The position numbers and the translations under genes are program-made. A DNA stretch of 64,000 nucleotides from an uncultured Planctomycetaceae bacterium (GTDB taxonomy: Bacteria; Planctomycetota; Planctomycetia; Planctomycetales; Planctomycetaceae). A model generated the notes under the pieces. The model was not told the origin of the DNA. It saw nothing but the letters and a program-made list of their open reading frames with translations, and searched no databases. Location: positions 224,001 through 288,000 of the forward strand of contig CAWFAK010000007.1 in the NCBI GenBank assembly GCA_963813715.1, read 5' to 3'. Positions 1-62,172 of this stretch are shown one piece after another. The first letter of the stretch is position 1; each line of letters begins with the position of its first letter.

Positions 1-2
1 TC

Positions 3-371
3 ATGGCGGTTCAAACCTCGAACGAACTCATCCACAAGAAATGCTCCCCCTGCGAGGGCGGCGTGGCAGCGGTCCAGCCGGACGAGGCCAAGTCCCAGCT
101 TGAAAAGCTCCCAGGTTGGCGGATCTCGCACGCCGGCAAGCGAATTCGCAAGGACTGGACCGTAAAGAACTTCATGGCCGGGTTGGATTTTTTCAAACGC
201 GTCGGCCAACTCGCGGAGAGCGAAGACCATCATCCCGATCTGCACCTTGAAGGCTATCGCAACGTCTGGATCGAACTCTCGTCGCACGCAATCGGCGGAC
301 TGTCGGAAAACGATTTCATCCTGGCTGCGAAGATCAACGACCTTTCCGTCGAGCTGCAGCCGGCCAAGTAA
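3..371 (+). CDS. phhB: Pterin-4-alpha-carbinolamine dehydratase
   Basis: 122 aa ORF with N-terminal CxPC, EDHHPDL and GGLSENDFILAAKI motifs typical of the PCD family. Confidence 0.92.
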   Translation: MAVQTSNELIHKKCSPCEGGVAAVQPDEAKSQLEKLPGWRISHAGKRIRKDWTVKNFMAGLDFFKRVGQLAESEDHHPDLHLEGYRNVWIELSSHAIGGLSENDFILAAKINDLSVELQPAK

Positions 372-528
372 GCACTACCGCGAGCGGCCGGAGGCAGTTC
401 TCCGCGGCGCGGGAGCGGACGGGTGAAGCTATGAGGAGCGGTAAGAGGTAGGCCGAGCCGGTTGGTGGTTGTGCTTGAACGTGGTAAACGGAGTTTGTTG
501 CCAACCGTTTCCACAAAAGGACACCGCC

Positions 529-1549
529 ATGAAATTTGCCGGCTGCGACCTACACAAGCAGACTATCACGATTTGCGTCGTCGACCAATTGCGGCGGGTC
601 TTGGAGCGTCGGACCGTGCGTTGTGGCGAAGAGCGGACCATCCTGGCATTCTTCGAAAGACTCGGGGAGTTCGAGGCTGTCGTGGAAGCGACCGCCAGCT
701 ACGAATGGTTCGTGCGATTGATCGAGCCCGTGGCCCATCGCGTGTTGTTGGCCCACCCGAAGAAGCTGCGTGTGATTGCCGAGAGCACGCGTAAAAGCGA
801 TCGGCTCGACGCGCAAATCCTCGCGGAGTTCCTGGCCTTGGACATGATTCCGACGTCTTACCGGGCGACTCCGCGGCAGCATGAGCATCGACGACTGGTG
901 CGTCAGCGGGGCGGCGTTCAACGGCGATTGACCTCCGTCAAGAACCGTCTGCGCCGCATTCTCTGCGACTACAACGCGGATCGCCCCAGTCTGTTCACCG
1001 TGGACGGGTTGGCGTATCTCGCCCAAGTGCCTCTCTCGGGAGCGGATCGGTTCGCCGTGGATCAAATGGTCGAAGAGTTGCACTTCGGGCGGCGTCAGCT
1101 GCTGGCCGTCAACGCCCGGCTGAAGGAGTTCGCCGAGGCGGCGCCGCTTTGCGAGCAGGAAGGCGCGGACGCTGTTGCGGACGATCCCCGGAGTGGGCTT
1201 CGTGACCACCGAAGTTGTGCTGGCCGAGTTGGCAGACATTGATCGCTTCGGTTCGCAAAAGCGGGTCGTCGCTTACGCAGGGCTCTCACCGGGTCAACGC
1301 GAGAGTGCGGGCAAGAGTCGGGAGCTGCACCTGGAGAAGAACGGTTCGACGCTGCTGCGCTCGACGCTGGTGGAAGCCGCCTGGCGGCTGGTTCAGCACT
1401 CGTTACGTTGGCGTCGGATTTATGAACGATTGAAGTTGCGCGTGCGTGCCAAGAAGGCGATCGTCGCCGTGGCCCGCCGGTTGTTGTGCCTGATGACAGC
1501 GATCTTGAAGACGGGCCAACCCTACTCGCTCAGCCAGCAACCGACTTAA
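529..1549 (+). CDS. IS110-family transposase (DEDD RuvC-like + Tnp C-terminal domain); +1 frameshift near 1162
   Basis: GCDLHK, VVEAT and KSDRLDA (DEDD) in the first frame; IPGVG and YAGLSPGQRESAG in the second frame. Removing one G in gaaggcgcgg joins them as EQEARTLLRTIPG. Confidence 0.92.
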
Positions 1550-1800
1550 ATCCCTGACCTTGGCAGGAGAGCACAAAACAAAACATCGATCGAAAGCGCT
1601 GCGACGACCCACAGACGACCCCGCCCCCGGCCATGAAGGCGTTCCCTCAAAAGAGCGACCTTCGAAGGGTGAATGGGGCGTCTCTCGAAAGTCGGCTTCC
1701 TGGCGACATCGACGGACCTGTTCCAGACCGTTGGTGATCCCGAATAGATGGTTGAGCGTACCGCATCGCCCAGATCACCACTTCAAACGCAAAAACCAAC
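1550..1800 (+). ncRNA. Putative bridge/seek RNA of the IS1111 element (ends approximate)
   Basis: Stems 1613-1622/1675-1683 and 1635-1639/1659-1663 enclose an internal loop with CCCCGGCCA and GGGTG, which match the target. A second stem 1732-1739/1773-1780 encloses ATAGATG, which matches the element's right end. Confidence 0.7.
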
Positions 1801-1824
1801 CCTTGACGCTACCCTTCTCATAGA

Positions 1825-1915
1825 TGGCCGGGGCGCTCCGCGTAGCGGAAGCCCCGGAACGCCGGCCTAGCCCACCACTTGCCTCCGAGCCTTCAGGGAC
1901 ATTCGCCCGCCGAAT
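1825..1915 (+). repeat. REP-like repeat family A, copy interrupted by the IS
   Basis: TGGCCGGGGCGCTCCGCGTAGCGGAAGCCCCGGAACGCCGG... aligns over about 85 bp with sequence from 10937 onward. Confidence 0.85.
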
Positions 1916-2025
1916 CGGGCCGAGAGAGCTGGTGTGTCTGCGGCCTATTCAATTGAAGCGAAAGAGCTTTTTGGGTTTGCCTTCGTGGCGGCGCTGGTCA
2001 CGACCCTTTTCGATGTCGACACGAC

Positions 2026-3840
2026 CTAGTTCTTCGCCGCCTTCGCGCGAATGCAATACAGGTTGTCGACGCTGCGGAGGTAGATCGACCCATCGGCGAC
2101 GGCGGGCGAGGCCCAGAATTGCTCGCTCAGCTTGTTGGTGCTGAGCAATTTGAACTCCGGGCCCGCGTCGAGGACGTGCGTCGACCCCGCGTCGTCGAGG
2201 CAGAAAATCTTTCCCTCGGCGGCCCAGGGAGACGTCCAGAACGCGGCGGCCTCCGGAATGCGATGACGGTACAGCAGCTTGCCCGTCGCTTTGTCGTAAC
2301 AGGTCAAGAGGCCGCCGTTGTTCTTGAGAATGTAGACGTGACCGTTGTAGATCAGCGGTGACGCCTTTTCGGGACCGCCGCGCGACGTCGACCAGGCGAC
2401 CCCGGCGTTGGAGGTCTCGTTTTGTTTAAGCGTGAGGTCGCCCGACGCGCCGGCCTTCACCGCGTAGAGCCCGCCGCCCCCGCCGCCGTTCATGCCCATT
2501 CCCGGCTCCGAGCCGACGTAGAGCATCTCCGCGTCGCCAACCGGTGACGAGTAGCAACGGCCGCCCATCTCTAATTCCCAAAGCACTTTGCCCGTGGCCG
2601 GATCGTAGGAGCGGACCTTGTGGCCGCTGGTGACCAGCTCGGTGCGGACCTTGTTCTTCCACACGACGGGTGAGCAGTGGTTCGTGCGCTCGTCGCGGGA
2701 GACGCGCCACAGCTCCTCGCCCGTCTCGGCATTGAGAGCGACGAGGAACGACTTCTCCTCGTTGTCGATCTGCAGGTAGAGCCGCTCGCCGTCGAGCACA
2801 GGCGAGCTGGCGGGGCCTTGGCCCATCACCGTGGGAAACGATCCGAAGTCTTTCTTCCAAAGTTCCTTGCCGTCAAAGTCGTAGCAGTAGAGCCCGTGCA
2901 TGCCGAAATAGGCGAAGACGCGGCGGCCGTCGCTGACCGGCGTCTCGGTTGCGTAAGTATTGCTCTGTTGGATGGCGGTGCGTGGTTTTCCGTCGAGCGC
3001 GTGCTTGTCCCACAGGACTTTGCCCGTGTTGCGATCGAGGCAGACGACTTGCCAGTGATAGACGGCGTTGGGGATCCGTTCGCCCATGCCCCGGCCCATT
3101 CCACCGCCTCGGCCTCCGCGTCCGCCGCGGCGCCCGCCTCCGGGGCCTTCACGCAGCGCCTGCAACTGACCCTTCTGCTCCTGGTTCAGAATCCTTTCGA
3201 GCTTGCCGGTGGTGGTCTTCTGGAAGTCGTCGAGCTGCTTCTTCTGGGCGTCGGTCAGCTTCAGACGCTCGACGTCCGCCGCGGGCAGGACGCGTCCCGG
3301 CTCCGGCCGACGGAACCGAGGAGCCTCGTCTTCTTCCGGCGGCGCTTTGAGCGTCTTTTGTTGTTCTGGGGTGAGCAGCTTGGCGAGCTCGGCGTCGACT
3401 TCTTTTTGCAGGTCGTGGAGTTGCTTCTTCTGCGCGTCGGACGGCTCAAGCCGGTCCTCGAGAAACGGAGGCAAGAGCACGCCGGGCTGCGGGGGTCCGC
3501 CCGGACCGCCGCCGAATCCGCCGCGCCGGCCGCCGCCGCGACCGCCCGGGCCGCCCATACCGAACCCACGGGACGGCCGCGCCTGGTTCTCGGTGCTGGC
3601 GGTGGTCACGAAGACTTTGTCGCCGCACACAATGGGCGACGACCAGCCGAGCCCCGGGATTTTCGTTTTCCAGAGCACGTTGATGCTGGTCCCCCACTCG
3701 CTCGGGATAGTCGTGGCGGCCACGCCGTCGCTCTGCGGTCCACGAAACTGCGGCCAATCATCAGCCTGAAGCAAGGCCGCCGAAACGCCGACGACGAGCC
3801 ACGCGATTCCGATCGATTTACGGGTCGACTCGCCGATCAT
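2026..3840 (-). CDS. PQQ-binding-like (BamB-like) beta-propeller protein with Gly-rich/helical insert
   Basis: Signal peptide, DWPQFRGP, GWSSPIV, YATETPVSDG, ASSP, ASPAVADG. Confidence 0.88.
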   Translation of the reverse strand: MIGESTRKSIGIAWLVVGVSAALLQADDWPQFRGPQSDGVAATTIPSEWGTSINVLWKTKIPGLGWSSPIVCGDKVFVTTASTENQARPSRGFGMGGPGGRGGGRRGGFGGGPGGPPQPGVLLPPFLEDRLEPSDAQKKQLHDLQKEVDAELAKLLTPEQQKTLKAPPEEDEAPRFRRPEPGRVLPAADVERLKLTDAQKKQLDDFQKTTTGKLERILNQEQKGQLQALREGPGGGRRGGRGGRGGGMGRGMGERIPNAVYHWQVVCLDRNTGKVLWDKHALDGKPRTAIQQSNTYATETPVSDGRRVFAYFGMHGLYCYDFDGKELWKKDFGSFPTVMGQGPASSPVLDGERLYLQIDNEEKSFLVALNAETGEELWRVSRDERTNHCSPVVWKNKVRTELVTSGHKVRSYDPATGKVLWELEMGGRCYSSPVGDAEMLYVGSEPGMGMNGGGGGGLYAVKAGASGDLTLKQNETSNAGVAWSTSRGGPEKASPLIYNGHVYILKNNGGLLTCYDKATGKLLYRHRIPEAAAFWTSPWAAEGKIFCLDDAGSTHVLDAGPEFKLLSTNKLSEQFWASPAVADGSIYLRSVDNLYCIRAKAAKN

Positions 3841-4096
3841 GCGGCTCGGTCCTTTGCGAAGTGTGTTTGGAAAAGAAGTGCTCGCGAATACCTTGCCGGC
3901 GCCACAAGAGGGCGCCGAGCACCGGATATTACTGGAATCATGAGACCGCCGCAGCACGACGTCCGGCATCAAGTCCGCGAGCTTAATAGGAGATTAAGAC
4001 CGACATCGATTGTCCGAGATTGCCACTTCTTGGCCGCGAAGCTCGCCGTTGTGGCTGCCAATTATGGTTGGACGGTGTCCTACGAGACTTACGAGA

Positions 4097-10930: not shown

Positions 10931-11075
10931 GACGGGTGGCCGGGGAGCTCCGCGTAGCGGAAGCGCCGGAACGCCGGTTCAGCCCGCCACTTGCTTCCGA
11001 ACTGTCAGGACATTCCCGGCCGAACGAACTGACGGAGAAACGGGGGCTTCCGCGAAGCGGAGCGCCCCGCCACAC
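10931..11075. repeat. REP-like repeat family A, inverted pair (empty IS target)
   Basis: GGGTGGCCGGGGAGCTCCGCGTAGCGGAAGCGCCGG, with an inverted copy CGGGGGCTTCCGCGAAGCGGAGCGCCCCGCCACAC at 11041-11075. Confidence 0.85.
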
Positions 11076-59346: not shown

Positions 59347-59467
59347 GGGTGGCGGGGGCGTTGCTTTGCGGAAGCCCCCGGCAGTTCCGGTCGCTCGTTT
59401 TCGTGAGCATCGCCGCACTTCGTGCCGATGTTCCGGGGCTTCCGCTCCGCGAGCACCCGGCCACCCG
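59347..59467. repeat. REP-like repeat family A, inverted pair between convergent genes
   Basis: GGGTGGCGGGGGCG...GCGGAAGCCCCCGG, with inverted CCGGGGCTTCCGCTCCGCGAGCACCCGGCCACCC. Confidence 0.8.
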
Positions 59468-60883: not shown

Positions 60884-62172
60884 TTAGAAGGTATGCGTCA
60901 GGCCGACTCCGATCCAGTGAGCCTGGGCATTGACCGTGCTGTTGCTGAAGTCGCCACCGACCAGGGCGCTCGTCCCGACGGTCCGCTGCGGGCCGAAGGA
61001 GTACTGGTAGGCCAAATCGAGATGCCACGTGTCGACCAGCGTGGTCCCCCAGCCGAACGTGAATGAGTTTTCGAGGGTGGCCGGGATCCAGGGGGTGAGA
61101 GTCGAGCTGGGGATGGTGCCCGAGGTGTAGATGTAGCCCAACCGAATCACGCTGGCGTCGGAATAGAACCACTCATAGCCGGTCCGCACCGAGACGCTGT
61201 CCCACCAGTTGAGGGGAATCGACTGGTTGAACACCGGGCCCAGGAAGTGCGTGAAGATCGGGTTCGACGGAATCGTTCAGCTCGATGTTGATGTCCTTGA
61301 ACGCATCGGCCCAGTCGACCCACACGACGTCGAGCGAAACCCGCTGCCGGTGCGGCAGGTCCTGCTTGAGACCGATGCCGACCGTCGCCGGCCAGCAGAT
61401 GGTGGTCAACGTATTGAAGTGGCTGCTGACCGGCTCCGGTGCGAGGCCATAGACGGTCGCATCCATGTGGCCGTTGAGGCCGAAGTGGTCGGCGCTGGTG
61501 TAGGCGGCACCGAGCATCGTGGTCTCGGTCAATTTGTACTGGGCGCCGACCGACCAGGTCGGAGAGACGCCGTCGCCCACAAGCTTGATGCTGGTCGGCG
61601 CACCGGCAAACGGCCCCTGCTGAATGAAGAACGGGGTCTCGAGCTCTTCGTAGCTGTATGAGATGCCGAGCGTGGCACCGATCGTGAGATTGTCCATGGG
61701 CCGCCAGGCGATCGCCGGCAAGATCTTGATCAGCGAGCCGAACGACTTGTACGACTGGTTGCCCAACACCGGATTGTTGAGGTCCCATCCGGCGGCGAAA
61801 CCGGCGGGAGCGAAAATGCCGATGCCCCAGGCCCAGTTGCCGTTCTCGCTCTTCTGGAAATACGAGAGCGACGGCAGCTCGAGCGGACGGATCTTGGCCG
61901 ACGCGTCGTCGTTGATCGGATTGCTGTAATGCAGATCCGTGATCAGCGTGTCGCCGCTGACCTCGAAGAGCCCGTTCCCCTCGGCATTGAGGATACCGGC
62001 CGGGTTGGAGAGGATCACGGCTCCGTTGTCGGAGAAGGCGATGTTCGTGCCGCCGCGGCCGTCGGTGATCGCTTCGTTGCTGTCGCGAATCACGCCGTCG
62101 GCCCGAGCCGACGATGCCGCCAGAACCAACACGCCAAACGCAGCAGAGACAATTCTTGAAACGGATGTTCAT
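60884..62172 (-). CDS. OmpP1/FadL-family outer membrane protein; frameshifts near 62135 and 61265
   Basis: Signal peptide, GRGG..IA..D....NPA hatch motif, amphipathic beta-strands, C-terminal Phe. Confidence 0.78.

Follow-up and report, generated by a model that had tools for sequence, protein, structure and literature searches.

What directs an insertion sequence to one class of sites in its host genome, and can the rule be read from the element itself? The question is raised by positions 424–1824 of a 64,000-nucleotide (nt) stretch of DNA from an uncultured Planctomycetaceae bacterium (contig CAWFAK010000007.1, positions 224,001 to 288,000 of the forward strand; hereafter the window), where an insertion sequence (IS) interrupts a short repeat that is also present uninterrupted within the window. 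We assign a probability of about 90% to the reading that this IS is one of eight genomic copies of an RNA-guided element of the IS1111 group (IS110 family) in a Planctomycete genome. The reading is carried by the boundaries of the element, its site specificity, the covariation within the structure of an RNA predicted downstream of its transposase gene, and the covariation of the guide arms of this RNA with the flanking DNA, each of which is observed in the comparisons below.

The element and its ends were delimited as follows, with REP denoting a repetitive extragenic palindrome.

424–1824, plus strand: IS1111-type insertion sequence of 1401 bp, delimited from the genomic copies, the junctions, the empty site and the joining contigs
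421–425, plus strand: left target half GGG and TG core, at the 5′ edge of the interrupted REP-like unit (GGG/TG in 8/8 copies)
429–441, plus strand: left subterminal inverted repeat, perfect in CTATGAG (429–435) and imperfect to 441, preceded by the extension AAG (426–428)
1811–1823, plus strand: right subterminal inverted repeat, perfect in CTCATAG (1817–1823), followed by the extension A (1824)

The dinucleotide TG is present at both junctions (424–425 and 1825–1826), and only one of the two copies belongs to the element. At the left junction, GACGGG (418–423) is followed by TG (424–425) and then by AAGCTATGAG, and at the right junction CTCATAGA, which ends in CATAGA, is followed by TG (1825–1826) and GCCGGGG. 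In silico excision of 424–1824 yields GACGGGTGGCCGGGG, which is identical to the uninterrupted sequence at 10931–10945. The original prediction for this locus, made from the letters of the window, had proposed this restored empty site, GACGGG/TG/GCCGGGG with a TG core, and all of its coordinates hold. In addition, contigs of two public runs (X1 and X16) link 423 straight to 1825, with 1401 bases left out and 2 letters ambiguous. These contigs indicate that the locus also exists without the insertion, and that the element comprises 1401 bp with no duplication beyond the shared TG. Insertion without target-site duplication is thus seen both from the empty site and from the 423/1825 joint. The subterminal inverted repeats share a perfect 7 bp (CTATGAG versus CTCATAG) within a longer imperfect match of about 10/13, and they are flanked by terminal extensions that add up to 6 nt, TGAAG at the left end and A at the right (alternatively, AAG and ATG).

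The genome to which the window belongs (G000) comprises 7.49 Mb in 18 contigs and is 82.6% complete. Eight copies of the element, 98–100% identical, were found in it. All eight sit at GGG/TG/GCCGGGG-like sites, the right flanks reading GCCGGGG in four copies, GCCGGGC in two, GCTGGGG in one and GCCGAGG in one. Six of the eight lie inside a REP-like hairpin unit, and the other two (L005 and L007) lie in unrelated sequence that has only the guide-matching bases in common. A genome-wide nhmmer profile defined the REP-like family as 54 units of about 40 nt with a hairpin, which are distributed by state as follows.

Occupied by the element: 6 units
Empty, with a perfect 12-nt target: 4 units
Empty, with one mismatch: 22 units
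Remaining units, with 2–5 mismatches: 22 units

Ahead of the hairpin, the REP consensus itself reads GGGTGGC(C/G)GGGG, and therefore GGGTG is part of the target and not of the element. These results agree with the earlier proposal that the element is aimed at a host repeat family. The units are short, multi-copy, imperfect palindromes, and those in the window, which include the following two, lie between genes.

1827–1860, plus strand: remainder of the interrupted REP-like unit to the right of the element, forming an imperfect hairpin, CCGGGGCGCTCCGC ... GCGGAAGCCCCGG
10934–10972, plus strand: uninterrupted REP-like unit, with the perfect empty target GGGTGGCCGGGG at 10934–10945

An inverted REP partner is seen at about 11042–11070. 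Positions 1861–1915 and 10973–11030 are alike over about 55 nt more, the repeat at both sites thus being longer than the 40-nt core. Unoccupied 12-nt targets with one mismatch occur in the window at 59347–59358, 59455–59466 (minus strand) and 61075–61086; the first two face one another, like a paired REP.

The sequences that match the target are found in the first of two internal loops of an RNA predicted downstream of the transposase gene.

1612–1758, plus strand: predicted two-loop bridge/seek RNA, its extent being that of the match to covariance model R1 (109.2 bits, E = 5.9e-29)
1613–1683, plus strand: target-binding loop domain, with an outer helix (1613–1623/1674–1683) and an inner helix (1635–1642/1655–1663)
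1624–1634, plus strand: 5′ target arm, in which CCCCGGCCA (1625–1633) is complementary to the top strand of the core and right target, TGGCCGGGG
1664–1673, plus strand: 3′ target arm, in which GGGTG (1667–1671) is identical to the left target and core and would pair with the bottom strand

Both identities had been pointed out in the original prediction, 1625–1633 as the exact reverse complement of the right target half (CCCCGGCCA versus TGGCCGGGG) and GGGTG at 1667–1671 as the left target half with the core, and both were confirmed. The top-strand complement lies 5′ of the top-strand-sense GGGTG, and each of the two includes the TG core. Chance alone would place the 9-mer 1.11 times in 64 kb when both strands are counted and about 0.002 times on one strand of the 275-nt non-coding region, and the 5-mer GGGTG on its own is not significant by a composition estimate. 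The arms are identical in all eight genomic copies.

Whether the arms follow the target was examined in relatives of the element. Within the same phylum, relatives were found in 15/401 genomes at E <= 1e-30, including 7/20 of the same family; GTDB genomes gave 7 loci (Planctomycetaceae, Planctomyces and Pirellulales), whose Planctomycete naming agrees with the probable origin proposed earlier, and metagenomes gave 80 loci with 57–99% protein identity. Among 85 loci examined, 77 had the conserved box GAATAGATGGTTGAG (<=2 mismatches) and enough flank, and 8 had no box; after removal of near-duplicates more than 88% alike, 55 non-redundant relatives were left for the alignment. The subterminal motif CTATGAG/CTATGAA is kept in the relatives, and the right end TCATAGATG is present in many of them. 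The alignment shows two short hypervariable stretches framed by conserved stems.

For the 5′ arm, the mean longest complementary run with the element's own right flank was 7.0, compared to 3.72 in permuted pairings (maximum 4.78; 0/10000; n = 37), and with the core excluded it was 5.35, compared to 2.98 (0/10000; n = 37). The own right flank was the best or tied-best match in 24/37 relatives, and in L054, L094 and L115 10/10 bases are complementary to unrelated targets. For the 3′ arm, on average 4.12/6 bases were identical to the left flank, compared to 2.31 in permuted pairings (0/10000; n = 41). This agreement was seen at positions -1, -2 and -3 in 37, 36 and 40 of the 41 relatives, respectively, at -4 in 22/41 and at -5 in 27/41, and at -6 in 7/41, which was judged to be chance level. 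These results indicate that the loop arms covary with the flanks of their own elements, a comparison by which the earlier proposal could have failed. Variable arms, a constant scaffold, and arms that follow the flanks together form an unambiguous pattern.

L041, the closest GTDB relative (75% identity; L041:1501–2540), has an in-frame stop in the transposase, a kept RNA scaffold, and a GGG/TG/GCCGGGG site.

The scaffold itself is supported by compensatory changes. RNAalifold predicted 27 pairs from the 55 relatives, 22 of them with a compensatory change. In a 32-pair structure for the same alignment, 93.3% of the cells were paired, compared to 80.1% after shuffling (0/500), and 230 cells had changed on both sides, compared to 59.8 after shuffling; when the partner was slid by 1–3 columns, 33–47% were paired. 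Both-side changes were seen in 7/10 pairs of the outer helix of the target loop and in 8/8 pairs of its inner helix. The stems that had been drawn by eye, 1613–1622/1675–1683 and 1635–1639/1659–1663, fall within these RNAalifold helices, and the minimum free energy fold of 1612–1758 gives the same helices (z = -2.16). The covariance model R1, built on the trimmed alignment of the relatives, matched the genome at exactly eight places, all inside element copies, and no solo RNA copies were found outside the elements (150 of 7818 first-look candidates scored).

A possible long-range helix closing both loops is seen in alignment columns 26–31/251–257 (in the window, perhaps 1599–1604 with 1767–1774). 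It reads GACGTG/CACGTC in most of the distant relatives, and 73.7% of its cells are paired, compared to 65.0% after shuffling and 74.7% in the control slid by +3.

Essentially the same two-armed arrangement was observed in the second loop, the arms of which match the ends of the element.

1684–1756, plus strand: donor-binding loop domain, with a closing helix (1684–1688/1752–1756), a helix (1701–1703/1740–1742) and a hairpin (1707–1712/1731–1736)
1695–1700, plus strand: 5′ donor arm, GCTTCC, complementary to the left end TGAAGC (424–429) at 5/6 positions, with C opposite the core T
1744–1750, plus strand: 3′ donor arm, ATAGATG, identical to the right end of the element and core (1820–1826), within AAUAGAUGG (1743–1751)

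Positions 2–5 of the 5′ donor arm pair with the left end in 82–98% of 45 relatives, and the agreement between this arm and its own left end was 3.20, compared to 2.83 in permuted pairings (0/10000; n = 45). The change in the triplet that follows the core at the left end is mirrored in the donor arm, as listed here.

Left-end triplet AAG: donor arm CTT
Left-end triplet AAA: donor arm TTT
Left-end triplet ATG: donor arm CAT

The 3′ donor arm is nearly invariant, as is the right end TCATAGATG, with G, A, T and G unchanged in 55/55 relatives. The two loops follow one scheme, with the top strand of the right-hand partner read by the 5′ arm and that of the left-hand partner reproduced in the 3′ arm. 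Because the arms of the second loop match the element's own ends, the RNA has the full two-loop bridge architecture; the donor-binding loop is an addition to the one-loop reading of the original prediction.

In the window element, A stands opposite the core T in the target arm and C in the donor arm. Many relatives likewise have C rather than A opposite the core T in the target or donor loop, with no strict rule apparent by eye.

The transposase gene of the window copy is broken, as had been noticed earlier.

529–1549, plus strand: transposase gene, broken by an extra G at 1162/1163; intact copies read CAGGAAGCG and encode 339 amino acids (aa)

In the window, the gene is split into 529–1242, with PF01548 (E = 6.3e-15), and 1175–1549, with PF02371 (E = 4e-23). 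An intact copy scores 217.8 bits against NF033542, "IS110 family RNA-guided transposase" (cut-off 140). The intact 339-aa DEDD transposase frame is present in L002, L006, L007 and L008 (4/8 copies), and thus the repair that had been suggested for obtaining an intact protein is not needed. The frameshifts of the other four copies lie at 1156–1164 and affect one and the same codon, with an additional G in the window copy (L001) and L003 and an additional A in L004 and L005; L005 also lacks one base at window position 1022. The contigs of 4/4 runs lack base 1162, which gives the intact frame. The window copy is non-autonomous, since its transposase is frameshifted while its RNA and ends are intact, and the family as a whole is apparently live in this genome. 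The window copy and L003 have in common not only their frameshift but also a G at 1372, a pattern suggestive of the movement of a broken copy after the break, with gene conversion as the alternative.

The C-terminal half of the protein aligns with the ISCro4 and IS621 transposases, including the serine of the ES motif (for IS621, residues 191–336, E = 2.1e-13). In the region of the IS1111 C-terminal motif the sequence is GLSPGQRESAG, in which GL-P----S precedes A and G. Four aligned proteins all have S259, A260 and G261, the serine of which lines up with the ES(G) serine of ISCro4. No tblastn match on plasmids reached 34% identity, and none had a label more specific than "IS110 family transposase", so that no group placement was drawn from them.

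Assignment to the IS1111 group is based on comparison with published elements. In the account of Siddiquee et al. (2024; PMC11187229), the 3′ non-coding region of IS1111 elements gives a seekRNA that co-purifies with the transposase and is essential for circle formation and transposition; in this RNA, the complement of the top strand comes first (5′) and the bottom-strand match second, and the two overlap in the target. The same source gives a transposase of 330–350 aa with the C-terminal motif GL-P----S(T)G, subterminal inverted repeats of usually 11–13 bp (7–17 bp in PMC11208160), and terminal extensions of 7 bp on the left and 3 bp on the right, occasionally 6 and 3. Bridge RNAs have been predicted in the right end of 93% of the IS1111 elements in ISfinder (Durrant et al., 2024; PMC11208160).

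The window element has the hallmarks of the IS110 family, a PF01548 and PF02371 transposase and site-specific insertion without duplication. It also has those of the IS1111 group, namely subterminal inverted repeats, a longer non-coding region 3′ of the transposase gene (275 nt after the stop, 1550–1824, versus 105 nt before the start, 424–528), and the published guide order. Together with the NF033542 match, these features uphold the proposed IS1111 type with the RNA 3′ of the transposase. The extensions of 7 and 3 bp are not found here, the total being 6 nt with boundaries fixed by the empty site and the contigs. The extension length, the GL-P----SA motif and the short left guide differ from IS1111 in detail, not in kind. 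Of the proposed compact recombinase of about 340 aa, the size stands (339 aa) and the compactness does not: the transposase is not especially compact, because 339 aa falls in the normal IS1111 range (PMC11187229).

Among characterized elements, ISPa11 of Pseudomonas aeruginosa is likewise of IS1111 type with a host REP as its target (PMC11187229). It comes from another phylum and has another REP and other guide sequences, and it was compared by its published description; extensions of 7 and 3 bp are usual for IS1111 members, compared to 6 nt (3 + 3 or 5 + 1) in the window element (PMC11187229). ISEc11 and ISXne4 resemble the window element in having a 339-aa transposase, no target duplication and an essential 3′ non-coding region, and their relatives are naturally reprogrammed within the guide stretches only, as are the 55 relatives here (PMC11187229). 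In contrast, their target is a short linear site and not a REP, and their circle formation, transposition and reprogramming have been proven by experiment, whereas the window element is known from comparison alone (PMC11187229).

For IS621 (PMC11208160; 8wt6 and related structures), the RNA has target and donor loops, arms that read two strands and a 2-nt core, as in the window RNA. Unlike here, the RNA of IS621 comes from a region 5′ of the gene, and its strand matches run in the reverse order (PMC11187229). Both elements have a DEDD recombinase with a C-terminal serine domain, only the C-terminal half aligning significantly, and IS621 is without long subterminal repeats, unlike the window element. 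The core of IS621 is CT, whereas that of the window element is TG.

ISPpu9 and ISPpu10 of Pseudomonas putida are, like the window element, multi-copy and located in REPs, often paired REPs, and recombine at a dinucleotide common to element and target (PMC12288879, PMC11208160). Unlike the window element, ISPpu9 belongs to the IS110 group and has no inverted repeats; it is also accompanied by the extra small RNAs Asr9 and Ssr9 and by solo ssr9 copies (PMC12288879), whereas the eight matches of the window RNA are all within elements. The string "Planctomyc" is absent from the main text of PMC11187229, and no literature search was aimed at Planctomycete IS110-family elements.

These comparisons suggest the following mechanism. 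The element encodes a 339-aa DEDD/RuvC-like transposase, and a non-coding RNA, about 147 nt long and with two internal loops, is predicted downstream of it. In the target loop, CCCCGGCCA would pair with the top strand of the core and right target (TG GCCGGGG), and GGGTG with the bottom strand of the left target and core; in the donor loop, GCTTCC and ATAGATG would read the left and right ends of the element likewise. Recombination between the excised circle and the target, carried out by the complex of transposase and RNA, would then take place at the common TG and leave no duplication. Expression of the RNA, its binding by the transposase, the circular intermediate and catalysis are taken over from published work on IS1111 and IS110 elements and are putative for the present one. 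The four intact copies may mobilise the window copy in trans. Because its preferred target is the hairpin foot of a REP-like repeat of about 54 copies, the element accumulates in intergenic repeats.

Several observations weigh against an RNA-guided element. The cognate runs span 3–10 bases, and a better match to the flank of another element was found in 13/37 relatives; for L010, the closest relative read by hand, right-flank pairing is obtained only with a bulge. The left guide is short, offering some three informative bases in addition to the core. That the TG core is conserved at the DNA ends of the relatives is in part built in, because the end-finding motifs include TG, and the permutation counts overstate independence, because the relatives share kinship. 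The closing helix of the donor loop is kept but barely covaries, with its fifth pair broken in 28/55 relatives, and since hardly any covariation is seen it is plausible rather than proven. A search of positions 1–3000 against Rfam at a permissive threshold gave no family for the RNA, only a chance match to a small nucleolar RNA (E = 2.4), and no sigma-70-like promoter was found in a scan of 380–1950. Lastly, the fold of the whole 277-nt non-coding region does not differ significantly from shuffled sequences (z = -0.68), RNA production, processing and transposase binding are proposed by analogy with published systems, and the four RNA-library runs consist of contigs, which are uninformative on transcription, RNA ends and strand.

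This insignificant fold and the reliance on analogy for RNA expression, with RNA-library contigs that are silent on transcription, would also suit a protein that picks the target by itself, for example via the REP hairpin, the RNA–target match then being incidental and the 3′ structure serving mRNA stability or termination. The target is a hairpin, and GGGTG alone is not significant. We consider this explanation highly improbable, because the hypervariable arms follow their own flanks in 37 and 41 relatives, the targets of which differ widely (0/10000 for each arm), the stems around the arms are conserved with compensatory changes, and two of the eight copies lie outside REP, at sites with nothing but the guide-matching bases in common. 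A captured or recombined REP fragment, left as the scar of earlier insertions and serving as no guide, would explain why the 9-mer of the non-coding region reads as the REP edge in reverse complement. However, the likeness to REP ends at 9 bases on either side, where a REP origin would predict more, and in relatives this position of the loop is taken by other 9–10-mers, which match flanks of their own that are not REPs (10/10 in L054, L094 and L115), which leaves this origin with hardly any credibility. Somewhat less remote, yet still very improbable, is a decaying fossil family that is immobile now and whose RNA–target match records past activity: four of the eight copies are frameshifted, the relative L041 has an internal stop, and the present activity of the element is deduced. 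Conversely, the intact 339-aa frame is kept in four of the eight copies, the copies are 98–100% identical, the locus is polymorphic for the insertion in public runs with an intact-frame variant assembled in 4/4, and the frameshift and 1372 G common to L001 and L003 suggest a move after the break, unless gene conversion is responsible.

The principles involved are known already: IS1111/IS110 guide RNAs, REP targeting and reprogramming were established experimentally in 2024, and NCBIfam names the family "RNA-guided transposase". The locus is a textbook-type case that opens no new question and holds no surprise for specialists. Its use is that the whole RNA-guided logic is readable in one genome, with an occupied and an empty target in the window, eight copies, and a host repeat as landing pad. 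The relatives amount to about 55 natural reprogrammings of one scaffold, which may be used for defining the IS1111 guide positions and for choosing orthologues.

Read jointly, the element and its approximately 55 soil and Planctomycete relatives might form a distinct IS1111 subfamily with rules of its own, in which frameshifted copies spread in trans; we offer this only tentatively and regard it as somewhat doubtful. The rules on the target could comprise an invariant TG core and a strongly asymmetric reading, with about three bases plus the core on the left and 8–10 bases on the right. Further rules could be extensions of 6 nt versus 10, a catalytic motif S-A versus S-G, and, in one of the two loops, the frequent C in place of A opposite the core T. 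In addition, the four of eight copies that are frameshifted with a perfect RNA, by two independent 1-nt insertions in one codon, may be kept or spread as RNA-carrying non-autonomous elements.

A conserved TTGAC(G/A) box is present at 1803–1808, pointing outward, 10–11 nt before the right subterminal repeat, and also at the right ends of L010–L012. It was considered as the -35 of a circle-junction promoter and dropped, as no convincing -10 was seen by eye at the proper spacing across the junction. The element sits between the convergent genes 3–371 and 2026–3972 (minus strand); one neighbour encodes a pterin-4a-carbinolamine dehydratase (PF01329), and the other is an open reading frame of 648 aa on the opposite strand.

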